A DNA stretch of 64,000 bases, taken from a candidate division WWE3 bacterium. GTDB taxonomy: Bacteria > Patescibacteriota > 4484-211 > GCA-002791395. Location: NCBI GenBank assembly GCA_013335095.1, contig JAAXWF010000003.1, forward strand, positions 69,960 through 133,959, in the 5' to 3' direction. The translations under genes and the position numbers were made by a program. The first letter of the stretch is position 1. Each line of letters starts with the position of its first letter. Shown piece after piece: positions 39,572 through 61,264 of this stretch. The notes under the pieces are model-generated. The model was not told the origin of the DNA. It saw only the letters and a program-made list of their open reading frames with translations, and searched no databases.

Positions 39572-39632
39572 TTCATAATTTTTTATTATTGCCGTAAATG
39601 AGTACTATTCATTATAGTATTAGCATCTCGTT

Positions 39633-40208
39633 ATGAAATTAAACTATCGAACTGCAGCAATCTTCGGCGTATTTCTCGTAAGCATATTAATACTAAGTAT
39701 TGGAATATTATTGAAACTAACGCCACAAGATAAGGCGACTCTAAATACTGTCAACATCACCACATTTACTCGTACATATGATGCATATACAAAGCCTAAT
39801 TTAGATTTAGTTTCGATCACACCGACCCCATTACCTGGTGGAAAACCGTGGTGGCTTCAATCATCTGATCAACCTATTAATGACACTGTTGCATTTGGTC
39901 GTAATCTAGGAACAATGATTTTTGATATTCGTTCAAAAAGCGATTTCGATGCAGATCATCTATCCGGGGCGTTTAGTTTACCTTTTGATGTTATTGTTTC
40001 GGGTACATATTCTATTCCATTATCTGCCGAAGTTATCATGTACGGTGACCGAATCACTTCGGATCAAAAGAATATAATTTCAGAGGCACTATTTTCGAAA
40101 GGGATACGCTCTGCTCAAATAATTGATTCATCGTATTCGGAATTAACCAGCATATTACCCCATGAACCTACAAAAGAAACATTTAAAGAAGATGATACAC
40201 ATGAATAA
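39633..40208 (+). CDS. membrane-anchored rhodanese-like domain protein
   Basis: N-terminal TM helix. Region DIRSKSDFDADHLSGAFSLP resembles a rhodanese active-site neighbourhood. Confidence 0.35.
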   Translation: MKLNYRTAAIFGVFLVSILILSIGILLKLTPQDKATLNTVNITTFTRTYDAYTKPNLDLVSITPTPLPGGKPWWLQSSDQPINDTVAFGRNLGTMIFDIRSKSDFDADHLSGAFSLPFDVIVSGTYSIPLSAEVIMYGDRITSDQKNIISEALFSKGIRSAQIIDSSYSELTSILPHEPTKETFKEDDTHE

Positions 40209-42558
40209 ACTAATACATTTGTTAATTTATTCAGTATTTATTAGTACGTGTATTTTATATATCTTTTGCCCAGCTCTAACCTATGCAGCGCCCACCGCAA
40301 CAAAACGAATCGGAACGTTAAATGGCACTAACTTTGTAGAAAAAAATACCTTTACAGTTGGGGAAAAGGCTACCTACGAATTAACAATTAATGGGCCAGC
40401 TAATTCCACCAGCAGTCGAAGAGTTCCGATGGACGTTATGTTTGTCGTTGATGATTCAGGTAGTACTACAATGGCGAATTGGCCCGGGGCATATTCGTAT
40501 GGTTCTCCAAAACCTCTGGTAATCGAGGTTGCTCAGTACGCCATGAAATCAATGCTTGATATGGCTGATCCAACTATTGATCGATTCGGACTGGTCTACT
40601 TCAAAATGGATGCTAAATTGACCCAACCATTAACAAATGATTTTAATTTACTAAAAAGCAAAATTGATGGTTTGCCGAGGACTGACGGTGGTTCTGATCT
40701 TGGGGAAGGTGCACTTACTGCATCTCAGCATCTCGTTGCTCAATCACGACCAGATGCGTCACGTAATGTTATTTTATTGAGTGATGGAGGGATTACCTGT
40801 TGTGCTCCTTGGACTATTGATCTACTGGATCCATCAGTCACTGATTATCAGATTAATAACGGAATTACTGGTCATAGTGTTGGGATGGGGGCTGGTACCA
40901 TTCAGGTTCCTAATAGTCGGTTTGATGATTATGTGTATACCTGTCCTATTGGCAATGTTCGCGTTCGAAGTGGAGAGGAGTATTTAAAATGTTATTCTCA
41001 AATGACGGGGGGCACGTATACGTATGGACCTGATCCTGATTCTTTTGTGGCGGCATTTCAGGCTATGGTGCAAATAATAAATGAGAATCTGTCGACATCG
41101 GTTGAAGATTATATAAATACAACACATTTTCAAAACCCACGGTTAGTTAGTGTTACTGATTTATATGGCAATACAACATCAGATACCGTAACTATTACGG
41201 GTAATCGTGTTTCAGCTGATTTTGGCAACCTCTCCAGTGGGGATGGGCGTAGAATTTATGTTGAAGCAGATGTTACAGCCGGTTCTACAGGTACTTCATG
41301 GAGCGTCACCGCCGATGCTCAACCAGATAATAGTAATTCGGTGAATTATACGGTTGATACCGGATCGATTCAATCGACAGCAATATTTAATAATCCGCTC
41401 ATTACGGTTCATTACCCGCTACCTGGATCAATAAGTGGACGTGTTTACCTTGATTTAAGTAATAACTGCTCATTAGAAAGCGGTGAAGCTGGTACCAATT
41501 CAGCTAGTCTTCGCCTTGATCAGTTACTACCAAGTTCATGTTCTCCTTCAACGCGAACTACAATACCTGATAGTAGTGGTAATTATACTTTTTCTAACCT
41601 AGACTGTTTTGAACCGAGCGGCGGCGCTACATATCGTCTATTTGTAACTTCAACTAATGCTGATTTCACCACAACAACATGTGGTAATTCATATACGATA
41701 AACCTAAGTCCAGGTGAGGATTATCAGATAAATCCTCCGCTATCCGTACTAAAAGATCCATGGTTCCAATTATCTGGAGGATCTGTGTACGCTCATGGGA
41801 TGATTAACTCTCCAATACCAAATTCGGCGATAGATAAATATATAATCTCTTCAAATGCAACTCTTAGTGCGGGTCATATTGCGACTGACTCGACAATCCA
41901 ACTTGATAATGGAGATATTTCATCGAAGCATTGGAGTACTGTCCCGTATTCTGAAACTATTGCCTCCACAATGATGCCTGACCAGGTTGTATCTATGTTA
42001 CAAAATTATATTGATGATCCCAATTACGATGGGTCTGCACCAAAGGCAGGGGATGCAACTGATGGTATCGCGGTGTATTCATCGAAAAGATCAACCCTGA
42101 CGTTATCTGGAAATTGGCAGCATATTAATTTCCCGGTAATAGTAATTATGGACAGCACTGCTGGCGGCATGGATGTACGTATTCCAAGTTCAATTACCCA
42201 GGGGCATATTAGTTTAAACCAAAAGGGATTTCTCATGATTATTGCTCGGGATATCTTTATCGATTCAGGTCTTGGTGAGGACGATAATAGTTCGACATCG
42301 CCAACCTTAGAGGGACTTTTTATTGCCCGACGTAATTTTGATGCGGGTGGGAGTGGAGATCCAGCCATCGACAAACGATTAAATATCAGTGGTTCTGTTA
42401 TTACCGGAACTGATAGCTTGGGTGGATATACGAGTCAACGCACTCATGAAGAAAATTATTTATATCCAGCCGATTATTTTGTATTTAATCCCAAACTACT
42501 GTTAAATTACCCATCGCAATTGATGCCGTCTCATTATAGTTGGAACGAAGTCCATTGA
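40201..42558 (+). CDS. large secreted surface protein: signal peptide, vWA domain, CnaB/SdrD-B-like domain, conserved C-terminal module
   Basis: Signal peptide MNKLIHLLIYSVFISTCILYIFCPALTYA. MIDAS DxSxS (VVDDSGS). Motif GRVYLDLSNNC…GEAG. About 380 C-terminal aa paralogous to 43116..45863. Confidence 0.6.
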   Translation: MNKLIHLLIYSVFISTCILYIFCPALTYAAPTATKRIGTLNGTNFVEKNTFTVGEKATYELTINGPANSTSSRRVPMDVMFVVDDSGSTTMANWPGAYSYGSPKPLVIEVAQYAMKSMLDMADPTIDRFGLVYFKMDAKLTQPLTNDFNLLKSKIDGLPRTDGGSDLGEGALTASQHLVAQSRPDASRNVILLSDGGITCCAPWTIDLLDPSVTDYQINNGITGHSVGMGAGTIQVPNSRFDDYVYTCPIGNVRVRSGEEYLKCYSQMTGGTYTYGPDPDSFVAAFQAMVQIINENLSTSVEDYINTTHFQNPRLVSVTDLYGNTTSDTVTITGNRVSADFGNLSSGDGRRIYVEADVTAGSTGTSWSVTADAQPDNSNSVNYTVDTGSIQSTAIFNNPLITVHYPLPGSISGRVYLDLSNNCSLESGEAGTNSASLRLDQLLPSSCSPSTRTTIPDSSGNYTFSNLDCFEPSGGATYRLFVTSTNADFTTTTCGNSYTINLSPGEDYQINPPLSVLKDPWFQLSGGSVYAHGMINSPIPNSAIDKYIISSNATLSAGHIATDSTIQLDNGDISSKHWSTVPYSETIASTMMPDQVVSMLQNYIDDPNYDGSAPKAGDATDGIAVYSSKRSTLTLSGNWQHINFPVIVIMDSTAGGMDVRIPSSITQGHISLNQKGFLMIIARDIFIDSGLGEDDNSSTSPTLEGLFIARRNFDAGGSGDPAIDKRLNISGSVITGTDSLGGYTSQRTHEENYLYPADYFVFNPKLLLNYPSQLMPSHYSWNEVH

Positions 42559-42621
42559 TACGATGAGGATAGAGGTTAAAGGTCGTTTCTATACTGTTAT
42601 TTTATGTTTTGATGTTCTATT

Positions 42622-43122
42622 ATGATAGAAGATATGTTTCGAAACATAACACTTGGATGGAAAAAAGTGCTTGCAATAAGTATTATTGCTGTTTTTATTG
42701 GTGTTTCAGGATATGGCCTCGTAACCTATTTATCACATGAAACTTCAAGGACTATTCAGTTAGACGATGGACAACAGTTACTTGCGGTTCTTCAACATCA
42801 AGCGGTTCCACTCGAATCGACATCAATTGAAAGCGCTGGACTCTTATACTTAATTAGTGGGGTAGTTAATGATGTAACTCCGGCTTACAATGCTAATCAA
42901 CAGGGGATTTCGTTTCACCTTATTGATGGCCAGGGTAATCTCTTACCACCACAATTTATGTTATATGACAGCTCTACATCTATCGTTCATCTCGATAGTC
43001 AGGGAGAAAGCCAAGCCTCGATTAAAGATATTCGTCAAGGTGATGCCGTTAAGGTAAATTATTACGTTGATTTAAAGTCTGGCGAATCGTTGGTTACCAA
43101 AATAGCATTGCTTACATGGTAA
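42622..43122 (+). CDS. hypothetical membrane-anchored protein
   Basis: One TM helix near the N-terminus. Lies between the two giant paralogs. Confidence 0.35.
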   Translation: MIEDMFRNITLGWKKVLAISIIAVFIGVSGYGLVTYLSHETSRTIQLDDGQQLLAVLQHQAVPLESTSIESAGLLYLISGVVNDVTPAYNANQQGISFHLIDGQGNLLPPQFMLYDSSTSIVHLDSQGESQASIKDIRQGDAVKVNYYVDLKSGESLVTKIALLTW

Positions 43123-45863
43123 AGCTCAAGTATTTTCTCCTCCTGTTTTTAATATTAACTCCGATGTTTTTATCTTCGTTTTCTCGTGTAGCCTCTGCTG
43201 CATGTGTTTGTTCTGGCGCGTTTGGGGCATGTTCCTGTTCGAGTTCAGGCTGCAATGGCATACAGGTATGCAATGGAACTGACAATATAACTGGAGCATC
43301 ATGTGTTCTCTCCCAGAGTTGTAATTTACCACCAAATACAAATAGTTGTGATTGTAGTGGTGTTAAATGTAATGGGAGTGGGGAATGTTGGAATTACAGT
43401 AACACGTCATGTACATATCCCAGTCAGTGTACCGGGGCATTGGGGGGGGGGACTGGGTGTCATTATTGCCAGACTCCGCTTGTTACTGCAACACCAGTAC
43501 CAACAACGCCTCCATTATCTGGTTCATGCGGTGGTGGTTGTGGCTTTTGTGAATGGCGTGGTAGTGATGGAGCCTGTCATGGCGGAGCCCGTCCTGGTGG
43601 TGGATGGTGCTGTCATCGTTCTTGTGTAAATGGTACATGCGCAACAGTCGATGGATCTGGTTCCGATTCTTGTGCGTCTAATGGTTCTACATGTGCTATG
43701 CCAACTCCTGGTCCTGGTGTTTGTGTTAATGGTGCTTCATGTAGCTGCTCTGGCGCAAGTGCCGGTCATTGTTCACAGTGTGGTGGCAGTTGGTGCAATG
43801 GTGGCCATTGTAGTTGTGGAGGGAGTGGTGGGTGCTCGACCCAACTGACCTGTTCTAATTTTACTGCAACTGGGCCAAGTGGTACGGTTATTCATGCGAT
43901 ATCACAAGATGATCATAATAAAGGCTATGCAGTCCCTGAATTAATAGTTCGACCAAATGATAATATTCGGTTCTATAACGATATATTTCCAGATGAGCCG
44001 TACGGTATGCGTGGTGAATATAATTGGGGCGATGGTACATCATGTCGTGAATGGTTAGTCGGTAATCATTCATCGCCGCGCGCGGTTTACTTCTGTAATG
44101 CCGGGAAGCTCAATAATGCCTGGTATAACGATGCTAATCTGCCCAACGTTACGATTGCTCCCAAACCGTACCCGTGGTGTGATGAAGACCTTTGGGACTC
44201 CGGCGACTGCGACTGTACTGCTGATGGGCGTACGATGATGTGCTTAATGCATGCCGACGATGGCGTCGCATATCGACGATATGCAGCATCTGGAGTCTAT
44301 TCCGTTGCTTTACGTGCTCAAACAGCATGTGTTTGGGATGATAATAATTCAAATCCGTGTTTATTGAAAATTCGTGTGCAAGCACCTCCAACGATTCCAA
44401 CTGGTCTACAAGTTGTATGTAATAATGGTAGTGGAAACGCTACATTCTCGTGGAACGCATCAACGAACACTGCTCGATATGTATTACGTATAAATAAAGA
44501 ACCAGCCGCCGACTGGGCAAATGTTGCTGCCGGTGATCAGTACATTGAAACCTCGGCAACTTCATATACGACTAATATAACTTTCGGCGATTCATATGCA
44601 TGGTGGAGTGTGCAGCCTGTGGCTGTCGGCGAAATGTATCCGTATTCTTCGACCGCGGCATATAGTGGTGCTTTCGCGTGTCCGAATGTGACACCAACCC
44701 CGCTACCTACCTTAACACCTGTTCCTGCCCAAGTCGGGGGTAATGTTTTCCTTGATATAAGTAATAATTGTATGAAGGATTCGGGTGAACCGGGTTCATC
44801 GGATGCAACGCTTCGATTAGAGCGCCTACTTCCTGGTTCTTGCCCAGCTTATTCACAGAATCAAAATCCAACTGCAAGTGGTACGTATTCATTTACTAAT
44901 TTAAATTGTTTTGATGCCGCTGCGAGTTCGACATACCGATTGCGAGCCAGTACTGCAAATGCTAATTATGAACTACGATGTGGCAATGACCTCAACTTAA
45001 ATGTTATTGGTGGCGCAAATGTTCAGCGCGATTTTGGCTTAACTATCTTACGGGATCCTTGGTTTCAGGCATATAGTGGTGCGATATATGCTGATGGTTC
45101 GATTGACTCAAAGATTCCTGCATCAGCAATAAATCCTCGGTTAGTATATTCTGATATTGTTCATTCTCCAGAGGTTGTGTCTGGGGGCACTATTAATACA
45201 AACAGCGGAACCGTATCATCGACGAATTGGAAGATTTCAAGTTACGCATCTGAGGCTGAATTGCCCGTGAGTATGACGCAAATTATTAAGACATTAACGG
45301 GAAAGGTTGACCGAAATAATTGGAATGGTGCTCCCCCAGTGGCTAGTGATGCGACCGATGGTATCGCCGTATACTATAACAAGGCGGATAATGTGACACT
45401 AAATGGAAATTGGCAGAACATCAATTTTCCTGCAGTTGTTATGGTCGAAGGGACCTCTGCTACTAATGGAAATATTACAATTCCAAATACGATTGTTGGT
45501 CAACGAATTACGCTTGGAGCAAATGGCTTTTTGATGGTTCTTGCGTACAACGATATATTAGTGTCATCTTCGATTGGAGAAATGTTCAATATGTCTAGTA
45601 CTCCAGATTTAGAAGGTCTCTTTATCGCCGGGCGTAATGTGAATGTCGGCGGGACGAATGACCGTCTTGTTGATAAACGTATTAATATCTCCGGTAATGT
45701 TATTACCGGCACTCGGGTTGCGGGTACGTACATCTCAAGGCGTAGTCATGAAGATAACCATCTTTATCCTTCTGACTATTTTATTTACAATCCTAAGTTA
45801 ATACTCAATATCCCACGCATCTTGTCTGATCCCGCATATGAATGGGGCGAACAACTAAAGTAG
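43116..45863 (+). CDS. large secreted cysteine-rich surface protein with FN3-like middle region and the same CnaB-like + C-terminal module as 40201..42558
   Basis: Signal peptide; about 250 aa with >40 Cys. C-terminal region alignable to the vWA paralog (…DPWFQ…SGG.VYA.G.I.S.IP.SAI…ISG.VITGT…YNPKL.LN.P). Confidence 0.6.
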   Translation: MVKLKYFLLLFLILTPMFLSSFSRVASAACVCSGAFGACSCSSSGCNGIQVCNGTDNITGASCVLSQSCNLPPNTNSCDCSGVKCNGSGECWNYSNTSCTYPSQCTGALGGGTGCHYCQTPLVTATPVPTTPPLSGSCGGGCGFCEWRGSDGACHGGARPGGGWCCHRSCVNGTCATVDGSGSDSCASNGSTCAMPTPGPGVCVNGASCSCSGASAGHCSQCGGSWCNGGHCSCGGSGGCSTQLTCSNFTATGPSGTVIHAISQDDHNKGYAVPELIVRPNDNIRFYNDIFPDEPYGMRGEYNWGDGTSCREWLVGNHSSPRAVYFCNAGKLNNAWYNDANLPNVTIAPKPYPWCDEDLWDSGDCDCTADGRTMMCLMHADDGVAYRRYAASGVYSVALRAQTACVWDDNNSNPCLLKIRVQAPPTIPTGLQVVCNNGSGNATFSWNASTNTARYVLRINKEPAADWANVAAGDQYIETSATSYTTNITFGDSYAWWSVQPVAVGEMYPYSSTAAYSGAFACPNVTPTPLPTLTPVPAQVGGNVFLDISNNCMKDSGEPGSSDATLRLERLLPGSCPAYSQNQNPTASGTYSFTNLNCFDAAASSTYRLRASTANANYELRCGNDLNLNVIGGANVQRDFGLTILRDPWFQAYSGAIYADGSIDSKIPASAINPRLVYSDIVHSPEVVSGGTINTNSGTVSSTNWKISSYASEAELPVSMTQIIKTLTGKVDRNNWNGAPPVASDATDGIAVYYNKADNVTLNGNWQNINFPAVVMVEGTSATNGNITIPNTIVGQRITLGANGFLMVLAYNDILVSSSIGEMFNMSSTPDLEGLFIAGRNVNVGGTNDRLVDKRINISGNVITGTRVAGTYISRRSHEDNHLYPSDYFIYNPKLILNIPRILSDPAYEWGEQLK
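43442..43451 (+). repeat. G10 homopolymer tract inside the coding sequence (encodes GGG)
   Basis: ttg-ggggggggg-gact read directly. Sits about 110 codons into the gene. Confidence 0.85.
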
Positions 45864-45901
45864 TTTTTGTAGAATCTAATCTGAAAGATACGTAAGAGTT
45901 T

Positions 45902-47182
45902 TTAGGAATCTAATCCAGGGACAGGGTAGGTTAGTGCAAAGTCACGTACTTGAGTTTTTAATTCTTCAAGCATTTTTTCATCTTCACGGTTCATTATTGC
46001 TAGATGCATCCAATTCGCAATCTTTGTCATTTCATCCTTTTTTATTCCTCGTGATGTTATTGCTGGTGTACCGATTCTAATTCCAGATGGATTCCATGGT
46101 TTCGCGCTATCATTCGGAACGGTGTTTTTATTGACGATAATGTTGGCTTTTTCTAATGCTACGGCTGCGTCAGTTCCGGTAATATCAAGATTACGAAGAT
46201 CGATGAGAACGAGATGCTTATCCGTGCCACCGGTGCATACATCATAACCTCGATCAACTAATTCTTGTGCCAGCGATTGAGCGTTTTCTACAATCTGTTT
46301 GGTATATTCCTTAAATTCAGGTTGTGCAGCTTGTTTTAACGCTACTGCAATACCTGCGATGCTATGGTTCATTGGTCCACCTTGCAAGCCCGGGAATACC
46401 GATGAATTTATCGCTTCAATATATTCTTTTTTGGCAAATATCATCGCGCCAATCGGTCCGCGTAATGTTTTGCGCGTTGTCATGGTGACAATATCTGCAT
46501 ACGGAAACGGTGATTTATTTGCTCCGCCAGCAATAAGTCCTGCTTCATGGGCCACATCTGCCATATAGAGTGCACCCACCTTATCGGCGATTTCTTTCAT
46601 TCTTTTGTAATCGATTTCACGTGGATACGCAGTTCCACCGGAAATTATTATTTTGGGTTTATGCTCAAGAGCAATTTTTTCGACTTCGTCATAATTAAAC
46701 CATCGCGTTTGTGGATCAACATAATAATAGACGGGGTGGTACACCTTGCTCGTCATGCTTACTGGTTTACCGTTCGGGAGCTTCCAACCATGGGATAAAT
46801 GTCCGCCATCATATAGAAACATCGACATAATTGTATCGCCGGGCTGAAGGAGTGCATTATATACCGACAAATTGGCTACACTTCCGGTAACTGCTTGGAC
46901 ATTAACCCCCCATAATTCCGGATCTAAATTAAATACGCCGAGTGCTCGTTTTTTAGTTAAGTCTTCAATATAGTCAATAAATTCATTCCCCTGGTAGTAT
47001 CGTTTGAATGCTTGGCCTTCAGAGTATTTATTCATTAATGGGCTACCAACGGCTTCACGTACCGCTAAGCTTACATAGTTTTCCGAAGGGATCATTTCAA
47101 GTTGTTCTCGTTGACGGTGTTCTTCGCTTTCGATCAGCGTATAAAGCTCTTGATCTTCATTTATGAGATTTTCGTAGGCCAT
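45902..47182 (-). CDS. glyA: serine hydroxymethyltransferase
   Basis: Full-length SHMT with PLP-lysine region (…TTRKTLRGP…). Confidence 0.9.
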   Translation of the reverse strand: MAYENLINEDQELYTLIESEEHRQREQLEMIPSENYVSLAVREAVGSPLMNKYSEGQAFKRYYQGNEFIDYIEDLTKKRALGVFNLDPELWGVNVQAVTGSVANLSVYNALLQPGDTIMSMFLYDGGHLSHGWKLPNGKPVSMTSKVYHPVYYYVDPQTRWFNYDEVEKIALEHKPKIIISGGTAYPREIDYKRMKEIADKVGALYMADVAHEAGLIAGGANKSPFPYADIVTMTTRKTLRGPIGAMIFAKKEYIEAINSSVFPGLQGGPMNHSIAGIAVALKQAAQPEFKEYTKQIVENAQSLAQELVDRGYDVCTGGTDKHLVLIDLRNLDITGTDAAVALEKANIIVNKNTVPNDSAKPWNPSGIRIGTPAITSRGIKKDEMTKIANWMHLAIMNREDEKMLEELKTQVRDFALTYPVPGLDS

Positions 47183-47286
47183 GTCATATTATAGTCATCC
47201 CGCCAACTATTATTCAATAAGTTTCGTGTGGTACTATTGTGAGCACCTTATTATGAGGTCTGTGTATCGTTTGAAGGAGGGTAGGT

Positions 47287-48210
47287 ATGCGGTATTTACC
47301 GTACTCACAGCGGAGGCCGGATCGGCAGTATAGTCAGCTTCTGGTCGAGATCCTTAATTCAGGTCTTTGGTCGCCCGCACAACAAGGTGGCCGGACAAGA
47401 AGTCGGTTGGGCTGCCAGATGCGGTTTCCATTATCGAACGGATTTCCGATTGTGACCGTCAGGGATCTGGCTACTCCATTTAAGAGTGGCCGCTCAATCC
47501 TTGGGCAGGCGCTGGGCGAACTGTGCGGGTTTCTTAATGGTGCTCGTACCCAAGAAGAGCTGGAGCAATTCGGCTGCTATTGGTGGGCACCATGGGTAAC
47601 CGAAGCAAAATGTGCCAAGCGTGGACTTGAGGAAGGGGATCTTGGACCAGGCTCATATGGGCCAGTCTGGACGGCATTTCCAACGCCTGATGGTAGCACC
47701 TTTAATCAGTTTGATGCGATGGTTCAGCAGATGATTGAACTCCCGCATCTTAAAACTCACCAGGTTGTACCGTGGTTTCCGCCGTACAATTTTCGTGGTG
47801 ACGGTGTTTTACAGCAGGTCGTTGTTGTGCCGTGTCATGGATGGGTGAATGTCGCTGTATATCCAGAACTCGGTGAATTCGACCTAGTCCACGTACAGCG
47901 GAGTGCTGATGTACCGGTTGGGCTGGTGGCGAATATGATTCAGTACGCTGCCCTCATGCTTATGCTTGAGGTGCTTACGGGATATCATCCACGTGAGCTG
48001 GTGTATATGATCGTGAACGCCCATGTGTTCGAATCGCAGCTGGTGGCTGTCGATAAGATCCTTGGGGTGGAGCCTGTCGAATTTCCTACAGTGACCATCG
48101 CCGAGCATGCCCAAGCACATTCAAGTGTTCGGGATTTTCGTGCCGGTGATTTTATTGTTTCCGATTATCATCCGGTTCTTCCGGTGATGCGGATTCCAAC
48201 ACCGGTATAA
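47287..48210 (+). CDS. thyA: thymidylate synthase ThyA-family (divergent; see findings)
   Basis: PCH active-site motif (VVVPCHGWV). GPVW…PTPDG, QRSADV…N…Y and C-terminal H..FE blocks alignable to ThyA. SD aaggaggg. Confidence 0.7.
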   Translation: MRYLPYSQRRPDRQYSQLLVEILNSGLWSPAQQGGRTRSRLGCQMRFPLSNGFPIVTVRDLATPFKSGRSILGQALGELCGFLNGARTQEELEQFGCYWWAPWVTEAKCAKRGLEEGDLGPGSYGPVWTAFPTPDGSTFNQFDAMVQQMIELPHLKTHQVVPWFPPYNFRGDGVLQQVVVVPCHGWVNVAVYPELGEFDLVHVQRSADVPVGLVANMIQYAALMLMLEVLTGYHPRELVYMIVNAHVFESQLVAVDKILGVEPVEFPTVTIAEHAQAHSSVRDFRAGDFIVSDYHPVLPVMRIPTPV

Positions 48211-48219
48211 GGAGGCGCT

Positions 48220-48753
48220 GTGGAACCGAACTCTTCTCGGCTGAAGGTCTCAATTATCGCCGCGGTTAGCGACCATGGTTGTATCGGTTTACGCGGGGCT
48301 CTGCCATGGGATCTTCATACCGATCTCCGGCGGTTCGCGCGGATAACCGCAGGTCAGCCGGTAATTATGGGGCGTTCGACTTGGGAATCTATCGTCGCGA
48401 TGCGGGGAGGGGCTCTCCCTGGTCGGACGAATATTGTTCTGACCAGTCAAGTTCCGTATCGTGTTCCGGATGATGTGATCGTAGTGAATTCGCTTCACCG
48501 CGCGTTACTCATCGTGCCGGGTGATAGTGTGTTTGTGATCGGCGGAGCATCTTTATATGCACCGGCCCTGCCTCTGGCGACATCGTTGCATATTACCTGG
48601 GTACATGCACGAATTGTTGGCGATCGCCACTTTCCTGCGTTTAATCCAGCGAACTGGGATGTCGTGACGACTGAAGAGGTCTCAATCGGCCCGCAGGATC
48701 AGTACGCATCAACGTACACACTGTATAAACGGAGGGTTCATGGATCAGAGTAG
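48220..48753 (+). CDS. folA: dihydrofolate reductase
   Basis: VSIIAAVSDHGCIGLRGALPWDLHTDLRRFARIT is the DHFR N-terminal signature. Confidence 0.8.
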   Translation: MEPNSSRLKVSIIAAVSDHGCIGLRGALPWDLHTDLRRFARITAGQPVIMGRSTWESIVAMRGGALPGRTNIVLTSQVPYRVPDDVIVVNSLHRALLIVPGDSVFVIGGASLYAPALPLATSLHITWVHARIVGDRHFPAFNPANWDVVTTEEVSIGPQDQYASTYTLYKRRVHGSE

Positions 48754-49177
48754 TCAGCCCTTCGTTGTGCTTGAGCATGCACGCTCGGCAGATCAGCTGC
48801 TGGTCATGCAACAGATCACTGCGGATGGGGTGTGCCCATTTTGTATGGAGCATCTGTTCTCTTACCATGATCAACCGATCTTGTGGGGGGGCATATCGTG
48901 GATCATTACCCCTAGCCGTTGGCCGTATGCTGGAACGAGGTTGCACCTTTTGGCGATTTCTATCCAGCACGTAGAACATCTATCCGATGTCACCCCGTCG
49001 GCGGCGATGGATCTATGGCAAGGCTTAAGTTGGGTCGAGCAGAACTTTACGCTTGCGGGGGGAGCGATTGGTCTGCGTTTTGGTGATCCTACCTTAAATG
49101 GTGGGAGTGTTCGACACCTACATGCTCATATCATTGTGGCGGACGGGCAGCAGCCCGTTCGTTTCAAGATGGGTTGA
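48740..49177 (+). CDS. HIT-family (histidine triad) nucleotide hydrolase/transferase with CxxC
   Basis: HLHAHII histidine triad. Confidence 0.7.
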   Translation: MDQSSQPFVVLEHARSADQLLVMQQITADGVCPFCMEHLFSYHDQPILWGGISWIITPSRWPYAGTRLHLLAISIQHVEHLSDVTPSAAMDLWQGLSWVEQNFTLAGGAIGLRFGDPTLNGGSVRHLHAHIIVADGQQPVRFKMG

Positions 49178-49191
49178 TGTAGGTAACGTAT

Positions 49192-49226
49192 ATGCCTCGG
49201 TCGTAATTGATCGAGGCATTTTTATT
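49192..49226 (+). terminator. rho-independent terminator of the thyA-folA-HIT operon
   Basis: atgcctcg…cgaggcat stem followed by TTTTATT. Confidence 0.6.
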
Positions 49227-49231
49227 ATAGG

Positions 49232-49260
49232 TTGACGATGGTGTTTGTTGTATATATAAT
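49232..49260 (+). promoter_or_regulatory. consensus sigma70 promoter TTGACG-N17-TATAAT driving a noncoding transcript
   Basis: -35 at 49232-49237, -10 at 49255-49260. No ORF of 60 aa or more lies downstream before the terminator at 49872. Confidence 0.55.
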
Positions 49261-49295
49261 ATGTAACATTCTACGTGTGAGGCGCACCGGAAAGA

Positions 49296-49375
49296 CTGTG
49301 AACTGGATCAACCCCGTTTTCCATAGGGGTTGGCGGTTTGGGCTCGAAAGAGCTAGAGGCTGAAGAAGCCCACAG
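49296..49375 (+). repeat. structured repeat module A (P1 ctgtg/cacag; hairpin aacccc…ggggtt; GNRA-capped hairpin gctcGAAAgagc)
   Basis: Read directly. About 90% identical to C and about 85% to B. Confidence 0.8.
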
Positions 49376-49436
49376 TCGCCCTGCCGTGGGGTTATTCACG
49401 GCTGCGGAGGACTTTGTCCTCCAAAAATCCTAAATT

Positions 49437-49513
49437 CTGTGAACTGGATCGATCCCGTTTTGAGGGGTCGGCGGTTTGGGCTCGAAAGAGCTAGTGGCTG
49501 AAGAAGCCCACAG
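49437..49513 (+). repeat. structured repeat module B
   Basis: Hairpin 1 changed to gatccc…ggggtc. Pairing is preserved (A-U to G-C plus a G-U), i.e. a compensatory change. Confidence 0.8.
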
Positions 49514-49548
49514 AGTTTAGGATCTCGGCATCCGTTCATGATGGATGA

Positions 49549-49628
49549 CTGTGAACTGGATCAACCCCATTTTCCATAGGGGTTGGCGGTTCGGGCTCGG
49601 AAGAGCTATAGGCTGAAGAAGCCCACAG
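49549..49628 (+). repeat. structured repeat module C
   Basis: Tetraloop variant gctcGGAAgagc. Otherwise as module A. Confidence 0.8.
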
Positions 49629-49871
49629 TTATTCATCATGGATGTGTTGCCATGGAGAGCCTGCGGCGTTATCCGTAGGTCTACCCTCTCCATTACTCGC
49701 CCTCAATCGAGGGCTGCGGGGAAATTTCCCTGCGCGCACCGGTAGAGTGCGCTACATCACCCGGGGTGGATTGCTTGGCAACACCCCTTTCCAGCAAGGC
49801 TGGATCTGATCAATTTAACGCTGCTACTTAAATTTTTCGCAGCAATTTTGATCGATCTCGTCTTGCGATAT

Positions 49872-49911
49872 GGCCGGCACTCCGAAAGGGATGCCGGCCT
49901 TTTCTTTTTTT
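49872..49911 (+). terminator. rho-independent terminator (8-bp GC stem + U-run)
   Basis: ggccggca-ctccgaaaggga-tgccggcc-ttttcttttttt. Confidence 0.65.
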
Positions 49912-50761
49912 ACTCCATTGAATTAGGAACTATCACGTGAACAATACGTACACCAAAGTGTTTCAGTATTGTTTGACCATCGAGCATTGCATAGCCATCT
50001 GCATAGTACATCGTCCGAATGCCTGAGCATCCGATTAACTTTGCACACGCTGGGCAGGGAAATGTACTTACATAGAGATGGCTTCCTTTTGTCCGAAATC
50101 CATCTCTAGCTGCCATTGCGATTACATACGCTTCGGCATGAATTGCCGTGGTTAGATCAACATGCACTGCTTTATACAATGCATTACGCGGATCCCCGTC
50201 ACTATATGGGGTAAGTGGATGCGGGAGGTGACGGTTAAACCCCGTGATGAGTATTTGTCCTCGCGGGGAGACCAATACCGCTCCTACCTGACGCCACCAA
50301 TCCGAAGATTGATGCGCCGCTTTTTGTGCCCGCCCAAGCAGTTCAACATGACAAGCCTCTGCCGTGATGACTTGATCCGGTATAACCTCTTGTTCGGTAA
50401 CCGTACGCCGTTTATCCCATCGCAAAAAGATCGCCGAATAGATGGTCTGATTACGTTTGAAGTACTGGTGCGCCAATTGATGACACACATCTTCGTCGGG
50501 CATCACTATCAGTGAGGCTTGCATTGCTAGTTCCCGAAGACCGTCCTCATCGATTACACGAACGCTTGGTATGATCCCGATGACTCGTAGCGCATCAGCA
50601 ATCATATGGGGCGTGAGTGACCGAATCTCTTTGGCCAGGTAATCAAACTGATCAATTAACTCTTGTGAGATGATACAGAGTTGATCAGCATCAGCGTGGC
50701 ATTTAAGTAGATCGATATATCCACGATGAAGTATGGGGATATAGGCTACGATGACCTTCAT
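49910..50761 (-). CDS. dCMP / deoxycytidylate deaminase with ~130-aa N-terminal extension of unknown function
   Basis: Zinc motifs HAE and PCPAC in the C-terminal half. N-terminal half unassigned. Confidence 0.6.
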   Translation of the reverse strand: MKVIVAYIPILHRGYIDLLKCHADADQLCIISQELIDQFDYLAKEIRSLTPHMIADALRVIGIIPSVRVIDEDGLRELAMQASLIVMPDEDVCHQLAHQYFKRNQTIYSAIFLRWDKRRTVTEQEVIPDQVITAEACHVELLGRAQKAAHQSSDWWRQVGAVLVSPRGQILITGFNRHLPHPLTPYSDGDPRNALYKAVHVDLTTAIHAEAYVIAMAARDGFRTKGSHLYVSTFPCPACAKLIGCSGIRTMYYADGYAMLDGQTILKHFGVRIVHVIVPNSME

Positions 50762-51336
50762 CCATCACCCCCTACGAGTTGATCGATTTGTTGGGTTAGT
50801 TGTGCCAACAAATCCTTGATTTGGCTGGCTAGCGTAACATGCATCATCCGTATCCTGGCGGTTGTCGATGTGGTCGCCTGCGATTCGATTACCTCAATTG
50901 CGCCACAAAACTGCAGTAACTCAGCCAATTCATCTTCTGAGTATGCAGTTCTTCGAGATACCACGAGAACATCTGGCTTTACTGCGCGAATAAGTCCCCA
51001 ACGAACTTCTTCGGCTGGTTTGATATACACCAGTGTTACCGATCGCAAAAAACACAGCATCGTTACCCGTTCCTGTTCGGGAACTATCGGACGATGTGGT
51101 CCTTTGCGTTTTTTAATCCGCTCATCGCTATCGACCCCGACGATAAGCGCATCACCGAGTGCATGCGCTCGTTCAAGATATAGTCCATGACCCCAATGTA
51201 TGAGATCCCACGAACCTGATGTGAGAACGATCCGACATCCCAGTGTCCGTAGGGCTGACACTTTCGCAATAACGTCGTCAAGTGACGTACATACGCGACG
51301 TTCTGGTTCAGATCCAGCTCCAAATACATCGCCCAT
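50758..51336 (-). CDS. cytidylyltransferase-like nucleotidyltransferase (TagD / RfaE-domain-II-like, HxGH)
   Basis: TSGSWDLIHWGHGLYLERAHALGDALIVGVDSDE matches the (H/T)xGH nucleotidyltransferase fold. ATG at 51336 has SD aggagga. ATGA overlap with the deaminase. Confidence 0.6.
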   Translation of the reverse strand: MGDVFGAGSEPERRVCTSLDDVIAKVSALRTLGCRIVLTSGSWDLIHWGHGLYLERAHALGDALIVGVDSDERIKKRKGPHRPIVPEQERVTMLCFLRSVTLVYIKPAEEVRWGLIRAVKPDVLVVSRRTAYSEDELAELLQFCGAIEVIESQATTSTTARIRMMHVTLASQIKDLLAQLTQQIDQLVGGDG

Positions 51337-51534
51337 GGCAAATCCTCCTGTTGTCTTCCAATGATCGGGTGGGCAGAGTGGGTATACTTTAGCCGATGTT
51401 ATTATAATGATCAATCGTCATTTGAGCCTTTATATCGGTATTTTAGTTGGACTCTTTCGCCGAGGCTCTTGTACCGTGGAAAACTAGTGTTTGTTTTCGA
51501 TCGAATCTGTACTAATATCAATACTAGAACGCGC

Positions 51535-53211
51535 ATGGCGAAATATATTTTTGTAACTGGCGGTGTCCTATCAGGACTTGGCAAAGGCATAACAGCCGCA
51601 TCTCTTGCGCTTTTACTTAAATCCCGAGGCTATACTATAACTGCAGCAAAATGTGACATGTATCTCAATGTAGATGCAGGTACGATGAACCCATTAGAAC
51701 ATGGAGAAGTGTTTGTGACTCAAGATGGTTTAGAGACTGATCAAGACTTAGGACATTACGAACGGTTCCTCTCAACTATGCTAACGCGAGATAATTACAT
51801 GACCAACGGTCAAATTTATTGGGAAGTACTACAAAAAGAACGTGCTCTTGAATATGGTGGGAAATGCGTTCAGCCGTATCACCATATACCTCCGGTTATC
51901 ATTAATCATTTGAATAAGGCTATACACGAACATCACGCCGATATTATTTTAGTCGAATTAGGCGGAACCGTTGGTGAATATGAAGGACTTTTATTTCTAG
52001 AAACAATCAGACGACTTAAAAGACAGTATCCCGGTGATGTCGCGCTGGTTCATGTTGGATATTTGCCTGCCCCAGCATCAATTGGTGAATTAAAGTCGAA
52101 ACCACTCCAACAATCAGTCACGCAACTTAATGCCGTTGGGCTCGAACCTGATTTTATTATTGCCCGAGCAGCTAAACCCATCGATCATATCCGTAAAGAA
52201 AAGATCGCCTTAGCAGCAGGACTACCGGTTGAACACATTATTTCAAATCCAGATGTAAAAAGTATCTATGAAGTTCCGTTGATCTTAAAAGAACAACATT
52301 TCGATGAGATCGTCCTTGATCGTCTTAATCTAAAACATAAGAAAAGTGATTTAAAGGATTGGGAGCATTTAGTGAGGCGAATAAAAGCCGATAAACCCGA
52401 AATCAAGATTGCGATGGTGGGGAAGTATCAGACAACAGGTGATTATACCCTTGAAGATGCGTACGTGTGTGTAGTTGAAGCACTAAAACATGCCGGTTGG
52501 GCTCAGGGTGTATCGCCAAAACTGACCTGGATTGATGCCGAAAAACTGCAAGAAAGTACGCCATCTCAAGTTGATGAAATATTAAAGGATTTTGATGGTA
52601 TGATCGTTCCTCAAGGATGGGGAAGTCGTGGAGTTGAAGGTAAGATTAAAGCGATTGAATATGCCCGCGAACATAAGCTCCCTTACCTCGGACTGTGTTT
52701 TGGAATGCAGATGGCTGTAATTGAGTTTGCCCGCCACGTTGTTGGTCTAACCGGGGCTAATTCAACCGAGGTTAACGATAAAACCAAGTATCCTGTGATT
52801 CACGTGATGCCACACCAAAAAGAGTACTTAGAAAACAAACAGTACGGTGGAACGATCCGCATGGGGCAATGGCCGTGTGTGTTAAAAGAAGGGACTCATC
52901 TGCATGCGGCATATCAGGAAATGTCAAAAGATATTCCCTATGTTGAACGCAAACGTCCGTTAACTGTACTAGAGCGTCATCGTCATCGATATGAGTTTAA
53001 CAACGAATTCAAAAAACAACTTGAGCAAGCGGGACTAATAATTTCGGGTACGTCTCCTGATGGAAAATTAGTTGAATCAGTAGAGCTGCCTACCGATGTC
53101 CATCCTTTTTTTGTTGCAACGCAGTTTCATCCGGAATATCAATCGTGGCCACTTATTCCTAATCCTGTATTTATGGCCTTTATTGAACATGTGCGCACCA
53201 ATTCAAAGTGA
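51535..53211 (+). CDS. pyrG: CTP synthase
   Basis: MAKYIFVTGGVLSGLGKGI N-terminus and glutamine amidotransferase C-terminus (GLCFGMQ). The ORF-track upstream extension is discarded. Confidence 0.9.
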   Translation: MAKYIFVTGGVLSGLGKGITAASLALLLKSRGYTITAAKCDMYLNVDAGTMNPLEHGEVFVTQDGLETDQDLGHYERFLSTMLTRDNYMTNGQIYWEVLQKERALEYGGKCVQPYHHIPPVIINHLNKAIHEHHADIILVELGGTVGEYEGLLFLETIRRLKRQYPGDVALVHVGYLPAPASIGELKSKPLQQSVTQLNAVGLEPDFIIARAAKPIDHIRKEKIALAAGLPVEHIISNPDVKSIYEVPLILKEQHFDEIVLDRLNLKHKKSDLKDWEHLVRRIKADKPEIKIAMVGKYQTTGDYTLEDAYVCVVEALKHAGWAQGVSPKLTWIDAEKLQESTPSQVDEILKDFDGMIVPQGWGSRGVEGKIKAIEYAREHKLPYLGLCFGMQMAVIEFARHVVGLTGANSTEVNDKTKYPVIHVMPHQKEYLENKQYGGTIRMGQWPCVLKEGTHLHAAYQEMSKDIPYVERKRPLTVLERHRHRYEFNNEFKKQLEQAGLIISGTSPDGKLVESVELPTDVHPFFVATQFHPEYQSWPLIPNPVFMAFIEHVRTNSK

Positions 53212-53487: not shown

Positions 53488-53976
53488 TTAAAGCTGTGCC
53501 GGATGCATTCCACCTGCTAAACGTAATCTAAGTGCACCGAGTTGTAACAGTGATTCCGGTGCTAATCGAGATTTAACCGAACCGTCTTTATCCTGGTCGA
53601 TCAAGAATCCGAGATGTCTAATTGCGTGAATGACTACGTCTTGTTGTTTTAAATTTGCTGGGCGGGGGATAATCGGATTGGTTTGTTCAATCGCGGTAAA
53701 TTGCTCGAATTCAAGGGAATCGTTCGGCTCGATGGTGATAGCATCACAATAAATGAGATACGTAATGATGATCTGATTGGGATTTTCGAATCGCCAACTC
53801 GTTGAATGAACAATTGCTTTTTGTAGATTTAGACCTGGTATTGTTTGGGTGGCTAGCCATTGATGAACGGTATCGTCCGGATTTTGCGGGGTATTAGTTG
53901 TATCAAGTGGTGTTATGCGATATCGAATGGTTCTCTCGATTAATGTCGCGACTATACATTCAATGATCGTGTTCAT
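53488..53976 (-). CDS. hypothetical protein
   Basis: ORF trimmed to ATG at 53976, because the ORF-track start runs into tRNA-Leu. Confidence 0.35.
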   Translation of the reverse strand: MNTIIECIVATLIERTIRYRITPLDTTNTPQNPDDTVHQWLATQTIPGLNLQKAIVHSTSWRFENPNQIIITYLIYCDAITIEPNDSLEFEQFTAIEQTNPIIPRPANLKQQDVVIHAIRHLGFLIDQDKDGSVKSRLAPESLLQLGALRLRLAGGMHPAQL

Positions 53977-53985
53977 GAATTTAAG

Positions 53986-54072
53986 TGGTGCCGGAGGAGA
54001 GACTCGAACTCTCACGGGTTTTGAATCCATCGGATTTTAAGTCCGACGCGTCTGCCATTCCGCCACTCCGGC
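53986..54072 (-). tRNA. tRNA-Leu (anticodon UAA), CCA encoded
   Basis: Cloverleaf folded by hand: acceptor GCCGGAG/CTCCGGC, anticodon loop CUUAAAA, long variable arm, T-loop TTCGAGT, 3' ACCA. Confidence 0.85.
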
Positions 54073-55983: not shown

Positions 55984-56427
55984 TTAGGCTTTAATTGCAA
56001 TTGATTGAATATGCGAAACGGTGATCCAGGCTGCCATCGAGCCAAATCCCGCTTTATTAATAAAAAAGGGATGCACGTCGCGTACGTTGGAGAGAAATAT
56101 CAGGATACAGTATCTTTTACTACTAAATAAGTTTATGTAATGTCCAAGTTGATCGTCTGATATCCCGTCGGCTTTTCCGTATTCGGCAAGAATTTGGGTA
56201 ACTTTTTGGGGGGCTAGGTCTTCAAACTGGATAACGCGCGATACGCTTGCCGCAAGCTTCACTGGTTCTCCGGTATCTTTAAAATAAATCGTGTCTCCTG
56301 ATTCGACCTCGTTCCATGGGCGATAGCGGTGTTTGTACCAGCGTGATTCGATCTGTTTTTCACCAGAACGGATCTTTTCGGTTAACCCCCATGACTTGTT
56401 CATTATTGCGACATGATCGCGTGGCAT
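55984..56427 (-). CDS. ASCH-domain (PUA-like) protein
   Basis: IRSGEKQIESRW matches the ASCH G(E/K)KT.E.R motif. Confidence 0.45.
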   Translation of the reverse strand: MPRDHVAIMNKSWGLTEKIRSGEKQIESRWYKHRYRPWNEVESGDTIYFKDTGEPVKLAASVSRVIQFEDLAPQKVTQILAEYGKADGISDDQLGHYINLFSSKRYCILIFLSNVRDVHPFFINKAGFGSMAAWITVSHIQSIAIKA

Positions 56428-56444
56428 CGTAACGATAGTATAGT

Positions 56445-56951
56445 ATGAAGGGTGATATGGCTAAACCAGCATTTTCGATAGCGCGTATTGATGAACGGAT
56501 CAAGACTTTGTGGCCGTCTGCTTCTCCTACCGTGGCGGCACAATGGGCGATTGACTGTACTGTTCGTGTGTTGCCGTTTTTTGAACAGGAGTATCCAAAC
56601 GATACTCGGCCACGTCAGGCTCTTGCTGCACTCACGCAGTGGATGAATACCGGCGTATTTAAGATGGCCGTTATACGTACCGCGTCGCTTGATTCACATG
56701 CCGCGGCGCGCGAAGTTGGCAATGATACTCCCGCCCGATCAGCGGCTCGTTCTGCAGGACAAACGTGTGCAACGGCTCATGTTAAAGATCATGCAATTGC
56801 CGCAGCGATGTATGCTCAGCAGGCATTGTTTCGGAGCGCGCTACCAGAGCTGTCATTGGATTTGGTCGCCAGCGAACGAGAGTGGCAGTATGAGCATTTG
56901 TGTGAGCTTATTCGTGTATCACCAGCGGATGCTGTCTCTACTGACAAATAG
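56445..56951 (+). CDS. alpha-helical hypothetical protein, Imm5-like putative immunity-protein family
   Basis: W..DC..RVLP.FE….D.RPRQA motif recalled from putative-immunity-protein families. GC higher than neighbours. Confidence 0.35.
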   Translation: MKGDMAKPAFSIARIDERIKTLWPSASPTVAAQWAIDCTVRVLPFFEQEYPNDTRPRQALAALTQWMNTGVFKMAVIRTASLDSHAAAREVGNDTPARSAARSAGQTCATAHVKDHAIAAAMYAQQALFRSALPELSLDLVASEREWQYEHLCELIRVSPADAVSTDK

Positions 56952-56986
56952 AATTTCTGGTAAAAATAGCGTAGTATACGTACATC

Positions 56987-57265
56987 ATGGCGCACACTTC
57001 ACGCGAAGAATTACTCAAAAAGCTAGAACATGCTAAATCTATGGTCGAGATTGGGGCTGAGTATCAACATGTGAAGTCGGGAGGTCGGTATGTGGTGACC
57101 GATATCGTTATTCGCGAAGACAACGAAGAGATTCGGGTTATTTATCAGGAGTTAGAGCATACTCCAACAATCAGTTGGGATCGTTCGTTTGATGGTACCG
57201 ATGGTTGGATTGTGCCGACCGAAGTTGATGGTAAAGAATCTCCCCGGTTTGTTCGTTGTGCATAG
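56987..57265 (+). CDS. DUF1653-like small protein
   Basis: Y.HVKSGG.Y.V….E…I..YQ.L pattern. Confidence 0.4.
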   Translation: MAHTSREELLKKLEHAKSMVEIGAEYQHVKSGGRYVVTDIVIREDNEEIRVIYQELEHTPTISWDRSFDGTDGWIVPTEVDGKESPRFVRCA

Positions 57266-57978
57266 GTCTTGTTTATCTTTATTATTTCTTGGTTTACAAT
57301 TTAGCGCAGATGGATTTTTCAACCGATGAGAAATTGATTGTGCGCCAGTCGCTCGAGGTCTATGCGGCGATTATTTGTGTTTGGATTGTGTTGTGGATTA
57401 TTAAGTCGCCAATTAATGATCCGAGTACGTTTTTAGGGAGTTCTTTAGGTGGGGTGTTATTTTGGACGGTTGCGAAGGTGATTGTGTGGATTTTGCCGTC
57501 GCTGTATTTGATTCGTTTTTCTAATCGTACGGTTGGTGATGTGTTTAATGTTACGGCCTGGCGTCAGTGGCTTGTGTGGGGAGTTGGGAGTGGGATGCTC
57601 GTTGCGATTATTAATACGATTCCTAAGATTATGGCGAACCAGCCGCTTGTGCCGCCGCATTTTGCCATTTCGTATATGAGTGCAGGATTTATTACGCCGA
57701 TTTTGGAGGAGTTTTTTATGCGTGGCGCGTTGATGGGGAATATGCAAAAACAGTTTTCTTTTTGGAAGGCGAATGTGATTACGTCGGTGTTATTTTTAGG
57801 GCTTCATTTACCGGGATGGTATTTTATGGGAACGTTGGTTGATAATTTTACCAAACCAATTGGAGGTGCGTTTTCGATCTTTTTACTTGGGTTATTGTTT
57901 GGATACGTGACTCACAAAGGTAAATCTGTCTTGGCCGGTACGATTGTTCATAGTTTAAATAATTTGACGGTGGGGTAA
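57256..57978 (+). CDS. CPBP-family intramembrane metalloprotease (CAAX protease / Abi-like)
   Basis: EEFFMRG (EExxxR), FLGLH (FxxxH) and HSLNN (HxxxN) motifs. Multi-TM. Confidence 0.7.
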   Translation: MCIGLVYLYYFLVYNLAQMDFSTDEKLIVRQSLEVYAAIICVWIVLWIIKSPINDPSTFLGSSLGGVLFWTVAKVIVWILPSLYLIRFSNRTVGDVFNVTAWRQWLVWGVGSGMLVAIINTIPKIMANQPLVPPHFAISYMSAGFITPILEEFFMRGALMGNMQKQFSFWKANVITSVLFLGLHLPGWYFMGTLVDNFTKPIGGAFSIFLLGLLFGYVTHKGKSVLAGTIVHSLNNLTVG

Positions 57979-58273
57979 TTGTACAAGGAGGCATTCCCGC
58001 GAGACGAAACCCTTTGGTAGCCCTCCAATCGTGATAATATCAATTATACCAATCAAATAAAAATCATTAAGTTGTACGATGATTTCCTCTAGATGGGCAC
58101 AGCTGCGACCATGCCATAACTATCAGATAGAAAAGCAAAAAAAGTAGGGCTAGTATATGCTAGAATCATGCTACCGAATGGTCTTTGTAGTGAAAGTACC
58201 TTTTAAGGGAGCAAATGTTGGCACAGTAATGTGATCCATCTTTGCTACATGGACCGCCTAGGATTAAACCAAT

Positions 58274-61189: not shown

Positions 61190-61264
61190 TGGAGCGGGTA
61201 GCGGGAATCGAACCCGCATCTTCACCTTGGAAGGGTGACATAATAGCCTTTATACAATACCCGC
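61190..61264 (-). tRNA. tRNA-Gly (anticodon UCC), CCA encoded
   Basis: Cloverleaf folded by hand: acceptor GCGGGTA/TACCCGC, anticodon stem TCACC/GGTGA with loop CUUCCAA, T-arm GCGGG-TTCGATT-CCCGC. Confidence 0.85.

Follow-up and report, generated by a model that had tools for sequence, protein, structure and literature searches.

The 64,000-nucleotide (nt) stretch of DNA analyzed in this study (referred to below as the window) belongs to a candidate division WWE3 bacterium of the candidate phyla radiation (CPR; Patescibacteria) and carries, between positions 49232 and 49911, a non-coding stretch of about 645 nt on the plus strand that is delimited by a promoter and an intrinsic terminator. 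We consider it probable that this locus represents a stand-alone gene, specific to this lineage, whose product is a highly structured non-coding RNA of about 645 nt; the RNA would act in trans and show three equivalent modules to a partner. The coordinates of all features of the locus are collected in Table 1.

Three repeat modules on unequal helical arms

A repeat search of the locus detected three direct repeats (49294-49376, 49432-49514 and 49547-49629), and alignment with MAFFT placed the borders of the corresponding modules, which measure 77-80 nt each, at 49296-49375 (module A), 49437-49513 (module B) and 49549-49628 (module C), the same coordinates that a preliminary description of this DNA had assigned to them. 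Identity among the copies amounts to 88-95% and is delimited precisely by CTGTG at the start and CACAG at the end, with unrelated sequences on either side. The differences among the modules comprise nine substitutions and one 3-nt indel, and the 18-mer GGCTGAAGAAGCCCACAG was found three times compared to 0.02 expected occurrences.

Each module is predicted to fold as a four-way junction consisting of the closing stem CUGUG/CACAG and three hairpins. Hairpin 1 is formed by 13 base pairs (bp) with a GA bulge and a loop of 7-10 nt, the second hairpin comprises 5 bp and is capped by a GNRA tetraloop (GAAA in modules A and B, GGAA in module C), and a third inner hairpin of 4 bp has the sequence GGCU-GAAGA-AGCC. 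The preliminary description had recognized the closing stem as well as two hairpins, one of them GNRA-capped, and these parts were found again in our analysis, but its anatomy has to be amended by the third hairpin, which had been missed. Every module caps a helical arm of its own, the closing helix being 7 bp long in arm A, 15 bp in arm B and about 25 bp in arm C. The sequences of these arm helices are unrelated among the three arms, while pairing is retained.

The heptamer CTGGATC was present four times in the locus compared to about 0.08 expected occurrences, and the pentamer TGGAT seven times compared to about one (positions for CTGGATC/TGGAT: 49305, 49446, 49558, 49768 and 49802). In the modules, the predicted bulge of hairpin 1 is made up of the GA of the CTGGATC motif, and folding also places a comparable G-GA-U bulge at 49768. 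GATC was encountered nine times with 3.7 expected.

Evidence for selection on the plus-strand fold

Folding of the predicted transcript resulted in a minimum free energy of -316.8 kcal/mol compared to -226.5 +/- 6.8 kcal/mol in dinucleotide shuffles (z = -13.3). The minus strand reached only -260.9 kcal/mol, so that the plus strand was favored by 56 kcal/mol, and the same direction was apparent for arm B (-48.5 kcal/mol, z = -6.4, on the plus versus -32.7 kcal/mol on the minus strand) and arm C (-65.1 kcal/mol, z = -7.7, versus -42.8 kcal/mol). G-U pairs are numerous in the helices and turn into A-C mismatches when the opposite strand is considered. Because such G-U-rich helices are weaker on that strand, an RNA read from the plus strand is favored over a DNA palindrome.

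When the three arms were aligned, 94.7% of the pair cells were occupied by standard pairs, and ten pairs were changed on both sides, nine of them in the flanking helices and one in hairpin 1. None of 500 column shuffles reached the observed values for pairing and double changes, and slid pairing registers were paired to 32-45%. Within the modules none of the nine substitutions breaks a pair, and the 3-nt indel is likewise located in a loop or junction or is neutral for pairing. The pair-preserving changes are of the types A-U to G-C and C-G to U-G, and the tetraloop changes from GAAA to GGAA. In a simulation, nine random substitutions left all 27 pairs intact with P = 0.0009, or 0.007 if a four-fold transition bias was applied. 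Compensatory substitution in module B, as claimed in the preliminary description, was confirmed in the form of one A-U to G-C double change plus one C-G to U-G change. No variation among the copies was seen in hairpins 2 and 3, for which the support is purely energetic. As far as sequence comparison and modeled structures can tell, the plus-strand RNA fold appears to be under selection.

Promoter, terminators and non-coding status

The thyA-folA-HIT operon, whose HIT open reading frame (ORF) ends at 49177, is closed by an intrinsic terminator that forms the 5' boundary of the locus. The sigma-70-type promoter follows directly and matches the consensus at 11 of 12 positions (TTGACG-17-TATAAT); its position and hexamer layout were as described before, but it is near-consensus rather than perfect, the -35 hexamer being TTGACG and not TTGACA. 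The strong intrinsic terminator about 640 nt further on was also located as claimed, and adjoins the stop codon of the convergent dCMP-deaminase gene (ORF 49910-50761, minus strand). Only two sites with at least 11 of 12 consensus positions are present on both strands of the window (128 kb), the promoter of the RNA locus included, and since there is just one other site that good, a chance match is unlikely. From these signals we infer that the locus is transcribed. The GC content of the locus is 0.53 compared to 0.43 for the window. A second near-consensus sigma-70 promoter (TTGACA-18-TATATT, 18518-18547) is situated about 70 nt upstream of the ORF 18614-19054 and suggests that the organism uses canonical -35/-10 hexamers.

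The longest ORFs in the locus encode 58 amino acids (aa) on the minus and 55 aa on the plus strand, in agreement with the earlier statement that no plausible ORF lies between promoter and terminator. The gene caller of the public assembly did not call a gene in the locus, and a concatenate of all locus ORFs, which was also meant to catch spurious gene calls over homologous loci, did not retrieve any relative at E<=10 from 5.8 billion protein clusters. On the minus strand, every module is spanned by one ORF (42, 47 and 58 aa), as would be expected if the region encoded small proteins such as three paralogous peptides. These ORFs, however, read module A in a different frame from modules B and C, nearly all codons substituted between ORFs B and C change the amino acid, and promoter as well as terminator are on the opposite strand. 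We regard a coding function of this kind as scarcely credible.

Remaining parts of the transcript

Outside of the modules the transcript is predicted to be almost wholly helical, with a small hairpin at the 5' end, two hairpins in the spacer between arms A and B and a 3' domain of six hairpins or arms (single-sequence predictions only). According to the same type of prediction, a possible long-range helix between GGAAA (49289-49293) and UUUCC (49788-49792) would close the RNA body. An alternative pairing of 9 nt was observed between 49644-49652 and 49776-49784.

Table 1. Features of the RNA locus in the window (CM, score with the covariance model of the module).
Feature	Position	Strand	Description and basis
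Upstream intrinsic terminator	49192-49219	+	12-bp stem and T-run; ends the thyA-folA-HIT operon
Sigma-70-type promoter	49232-49260	+	-35 TTGACG, 17-nt spacer, -10 TATAAT; predicted start at about 49267
Predicted primary transcript	49266-49911	+	About 645 nt (646 nt folded); promoter and terminator matches, fold energy
Small 5' hairpin	49275-49287	+	GUGUG/CGCAC; predicted, mean pair probability 0.82
Arm A	49294-49377	+	Module A with 7-bp stem GACUGUG/CACAGUC; alone -37.7 kcal/mol, z = -4.2; CM 111.8 bits
Two spacer hairpins	49383-49422	+	GCCGUGGG/UUCACGGC and GGAGGAC/GUCCUCC; pair probabilities 0.96 and 1.0
Arm B	49427-49523	+	Module B with 15-bp helix, outer 10 bp formed by unique flanks AUCCUAAAUU/AGUUUAGGAU; CM 100.2 bits
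Arm C	49527-49651	+	Module C with closing helix of about 25 bp, G-U-rich, unique flanks, both AUGGAUG copies inside; CM 107.8 bits
3' domain	49652-49866	+	215 nt; six hairpins or arms, predicted from a single sequence only, with pair probabilities of 0.8-1.0
Elements of the 3' domain	49652-49693, 49699-49714, 49716-49733, 49734-49752, 49763-49787, 49794-49866	+	
Downstream intrinsic terminator	49872-49911	+	GC-rich hairpin GGCCGGCA...UGCCGGCC, followed by the U-tract UUUUCUUUUUUU

Known RNA families and search for homologs

The window was scanned with the 4227 models of Rfam 15, including those for RNase P, tmRNA, signal recognition particle (SRP) RNA, 6S, OLE, GOLLD, ROOL, riboswitches and self-cleaving ribozymes. 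At gathering thresholds only two tRNAs (53989-54072 and 61193-61264) were detected in the whole window and none of the families matched the RNA locus. At E<=10 the locus returned nothing beyond sub-threshold noise, of which the best match (Esr41, 21.3 bits) covered just the terminator, and a single module (102-nt search) was aligned to LOOT RNA (RF03000) at noise level, with 10.8 bits compared to a gathering threshold of 46.4 and an E value of 4.7. No known element in Rfam thus explains the locus, and the lack of RNase P, tmRNA, SRP and 6S signatures reported earlier was borne out at both settings. ARAGORN identified neither a tRNA nor a tmRNA in the locus, and the Rfam tRNA model did not match there. 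Several other candidates were rejected: the hammerhead ribozyme on its anatomy, as CUGAAGA is a hairpin loop in the module and not a core strand, the kink-turn, the 11-nt tetraloop receptor and integron attC on anatomy alone, and a replication origin because a skew switch was absent. Our searches of the literature on structured RNAs of CPR and WWE3 bacteria did not yield a description of a comparable large RNA.

A covariance model built from the module was applied to the window, to further sequence of about 12 kb belonging to this genome (L039 and L040) and to the loci of relatives. In the window the three copies scored 100-112 bits and the next best match 11.5 bits; the additional sequence did not contain a module. 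The roughly 76 kb of genome covered in this way held no further copy outside of the locus and no sign of a genome-wide repeat of the repetitive extragenic palindrome (REP) or miniature inverted-repeat transposable element (MITE) type, the possibility for which a search for more copies had been suggested. In the loci of five relatives (see below) the model detected nothing real, the match in L035 consisting of a terminator and a gene start.

The search was extended to larger collections by pattern scans, which require at least 14 exact bases and which distant homologs may therefore escape. The 18-mer retrieved 25 matches from 185,579 species genomes, all of them attributable to chance (upstream identity about 25%). 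Two transition-tolerant patterns yielded zero matches and one chance match (L034), respectively, in JGI metagenomes, and five pattern scans of IMG/VR viral contigs gave chance matches only. When the locus was compared by blastn with GenBank phages and PLSDB plasmids, no match was obtained. Within the window, potential mRNA targets complementary to the loop of hairpin 1 were fewer than expected by chance.

One of the relatives, L005, contains a 675-nt ORF-poor stretch (1400-2075, minus strand), which has the L10 leader/rplJ on one side and the genes preceding thyA on the other. It was considered as a relative of the RNA locus and dropped, the similarity score of 23 not being significant compared to 21 +/- 2 for shuffled sequences. 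The stretch has a GC content of 0.55 versus 0.46 for its locus and a fold z of -6.0, and the HIT protein of its host is 48% identical. It may represent another unannotated structured RNA or a decayed gene.

Genomic context of the locus

The HIT protein was found to be identical to an NCBI protein assigned to a candidate division WWE3 bacterium, and the window agrees in every base with a Logan contig of run SRR11449211. The genes in this part of the window are arranged in the order ribonucleotide reductase, glyA, thyA, folA, HIT, RNA locus, dCMP deaminase, a cytidylyltransferase-like gene and CTP synthase. This neighborhood constitutes a thymidylate/deoxynucleoside triphosphate (dNTP) cluster (37058-53211), with pyrG and nrd near it in the window, and recurs in the five WWE3-like relatives L002, L005, L035, L036 and L037, whose HIT proteins, the nearest homologs, exhibit only 40-50% identity. 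In all five, the HIT and dCMP-deaminase genes are directly convergent or overlap tail to tail and leave no room for an RNA gene. Because these flanking genes abut in every relative, the locus of about 730 bp is a lineage-specific insertion.

Alternative explanations

The most serious functional rival is a polycistronic precursor, in which the helices of arms B and C would serve as processing stems (e.g. for RNase III) and three cloverleaf-like RNAs of about 80-100 nt would be released, as is known for rRNAs, some tRNAs, crRNAs and ToxI. That identity does not go beyond the module borders, pairing alone being retained in the flanks, would fit such processing, as would the helices of about 25 bp (arm C) and 15 bp (arm B) at the module base and the single promoter and terminator serving three copies. 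The closing stem of arm A is just 7 bp long, however, so that no processing helix is common to the three units, and the 215-nt 3' domain and the spacer hairpins would be left without a role; they fit one integrated RNA better. Together with the lack of a tRNA-like or known small-RNA signature in the ARAGORN and Rfam searches, this makes a precursor unlikely. As the most serious non-functional rival, a selfish DNA repeat of the MITE, REP or Correia type could have landed three times in one spacer, in which case promoter, terminator and folding would be incidental. The sharp borders with the short terminal inverted repeat CTGTG...CACAG, the copy identity of 88-95%, the absence of the whole insertion from five relatives and the lack of homologs, which leaves conservation unproven, are all compatible with this origin. 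On the other hand, neither the rest of the window nor the additional 12 kb of genome contained an extra copy, and no true match was obtained from the genome, metagenome and viral collections or from GenBank phages and plasmids. Target-site duplications are missing, the flanks form inverted instead of direct repeats, and the shared terminal inverted repeat measures only 5 bp. Pairing of the flanks extends to the very border of the module, includes several G-U pairs and is much weaker on the opposite strand or as DNA, the differences among the copies avoid breaking pairs, and the simple long hairpins typical of these repeats differ from the four-way junction with GNRA loops inside the modules. 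We judge this explanation to be unlikely too, slightly more so than the precursor.

Three tandem ligand-binding aptamers, acting as a riboswitch-like sensor or as a metabolite sponge in trans, had been considered in the preliminary description as well. The size of about 80 nt, the multi-helix junction with its invariant junction-proximal nucleotides and the neighboring genes glyA, thyA, folA, HIT, dCMP deaminase, CTP synthase and ribonucleotide reductase would agree with aptamers for a ligand that is perhaps related to thymidylate or dNTPs. The idea is weakened by the absence of a same-strand downstream gene and of an expression platform, the terminator facing the convergent dCMP-deaminase gene. 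Moreover, no Rfam riboswitch model scored even at E<=10, and the same gene cluster does without the RNA in five relatives; we retain aptamers as an improbable, low-ranked alternative. A CsrB/RsmZ-like sponge titrating CsrA or RsmA through GGA motifs had been proposed too, for which a stand-alone RNA with repeated elements, two occurrences of AUGGAUG and the excess of TGGAT (seven versus about one) could be cited. While the motifs are present as described, GGA itself is not enriched (15 compared to 10.9 +/- 2.7 expected), and 14 of the 15 GGA are contained in helices or the GA bulge, the sole loop GGA belonging to the GGAA tetraloop of module C, a GNRA variant. The two AUGGAUG copies represent the two strands of the quasi-palindromic helix of arm C, and no CsrB/Rsm family matched in Rfam. 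The proposal of such a sponge was not sustained, and we consider it very improbable.

Proposed function of the RNA and its weight

According to the reading that we favor, a structured trans-acting RNA, transcription of the plus strand would start at the near-consensus promoter of the locus and stop at its intrinsic terminator, and the RNA would act in trans as a multivalent platform that offers three equivalent module surfaces to one partner. This partner could be a protein, another RNA surface (self-assembly included) or a small ligand, and the three identical modules would correspond to three equivalent functional sites. A platform acting in trans is favored because an elaborate surface that is repeated three times on unequal arms resembles the architecture of a scaffold, a sponge or a self-docking RNA. 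Since these bacteria have small genomes, a non-coding insertion of about 730 bp with a near-consensus promoter is unlikely to be long-lived neutral baggage.

Several points weigh against this reading. The locus is absent from all five relatives and therefore young or acquired, and it may be dispensable. Searches of genome, metagenome, viral, phage, plasmid and protein collections did not detect a homolog, and phylogenetic covariation is lacking for this reason, the structural support being provided by three paralogous copies in one sequence and by thermodynamic prediction. Transcription is deduced from sequence-level matches to promoter and terminator, and near-identical modules (stems too) with sharp borders and a 5-bp CTGTG/CACAG repeat would also be consistent with recent copying of a small element. 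The multivalent platform is a mechanism that we only infer.

Taken as far as one sequence allows, the earlier suggestion of a new large structured RNA is supported by the fold z of -13.3, by differences among the modules that respect the fold and by the lack of an Rfam match, and the locus is a credible candidate for a new RNA outside of the Rfam families. With less confidence than for the gene itself, we propose as a serious but tentative possibility that it represents the founding, single-genome example of a new class of large bacterial RNAs, in which three 80-nt four-way-junction modules are mounted on unequal arms. Such an RNA would have been acquired recently by a genome-reduced CPR bacterium, and it could be pseudo-symmetric and bind three copies of a partner or self-assemble, the contacts being made by the GNRA and GAAGA loops. 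Few large bacterial RNAs with an intricate fold are known, and unusual functions have often emerged for the characterized ones (PMC5737381). If the RNA is real, the triplicated four-way-junction design would be a new modular architecture, and a length of 645 nt with three identical landmarks would make it tractable for chemical probing or cryo-EM. For now its value is limited, as it is an orphan RNA from an uncultured organism.

Other observations in the window

The region 4650-7400 forms a GC-rich island (about 0.50 compared to 0.41-0.43), in which three or four small genes lie on the minus strand; their products of 117-184 aa are rich in Trp/Cys and bear signal peptides. No Rfam match was obtained in the island. 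The upstream regions of these genes are near-identical repeats (about 5740-6040 and 6570-6830), and a repeated terminator hairpin ("gggccggatttcgtggtt...accacga.atccggcc") is present near 5190, 6030 and 6830. The island looks like a tandemly duplicated cassette for secreted proteins with a conserved long 5' leader and was possibly acquired.

In the region 55984-61066, an ORF with a weak ASCH domain is accompanied by genes for an Imm5-like immunity protein (56445-56951, E = 2.5e-36), a membrane protein resembling CAAX proteases and a protein of 930 aa that carries AAA_21/AAA_23 signatures (AbiEii/OLD-like ATPase) as well as a weak PHP signature, and these genes may constitute a conflict or defense cluster. 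A 180-aa ORF (53488-54030, minus strand) that overlaps the tRNA-Leu(UAA) gene (53986-54072) is probably spurious or mis-started.

Comparison with known systems

Among the Rfam models, only LOOT RNA was aligned over the length of the module; in both, a long hairpin with a C/G tip precedes two small hairpins of the GAAA type. With 16 model positions deleted and a score at noise level, this alignment is not counted as membership. The module also differs from a tRNA, its arms and loops being represented by a 13-bp bulged arm, a 4-nt loop and a 5-nt loop.

ToxI arrays resemble the locus in that tandem near-identical structured RNA repeats are placed under one promoter, an arrangement that suggests processing into units. 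ToxI repeats are 36 nt long, abut directly and are followed by the toxin gene, whereas the units of the WWE3 locus measure 80 nt, are separated by unique structured spacers and have no toxin-like gene adjacent to them. An examination of the neighborhood for a type III toxin-antitoxin system found HIT and dCMP deaminase as neighbors, with no same-strand downstream gene and no endoribonuclease toxin gene adjacent. Repeats of the REP, ERIC, Correia and MITE types are likewise short, intergenic, bounded by terminal inverted repeats and foldable when transcribed. In contrast to these, the WWE3 modules were found in one locus only in the roughly 76 kb of genome covered, lack a target-site duplication and have a branched fold, and their helices are strand-specific, G-U-rich and continue into unique flanks.

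Tandem riboswitch aptamers, of which the glycine riboswitch is an example (PMC5737381, refs 63-64), also combine repeated multi-helix junction domains of 80-100 nt in one transcript. The WWE3 locus differs from them by having no expression platform, no same-strand downstream ORF and no match to a riboswitch model, and its modules, three in number, are carried on separate arms instead of being adjacent cooperative aptamers. With CsrB, RsmY and RsmZ it has in common that a stand-alone RNA extends from promoter to terminator and contains a repeated structural element suggestive of multivalent binding, the unit being an 80-nt four-way junction in the WWE3 RNA and a short hairpin with a GGA in its loop in the others.

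A further comparison is offered by OLE, GOLLD and ROOL, which belong to the large "ornate" non-coding RNAs of bacteria (Weinberg et al. 2017, PMC5737381). These families occur widely and have been delineated through covariation across many homologs, while the WWE3 RNA is without a detectable homolog, and their Rfam models did not match its locus. To our knowledge, none of them is built from three near-identical internal modules. Features shared by all of these RNAs are a size in the class of about 600 nt, a transcription unit of their own, many helices, multistem junctions with GNRA loops, a GC-rich sequence in an AT-richer genome and a function that is not apparent from the genomic context.

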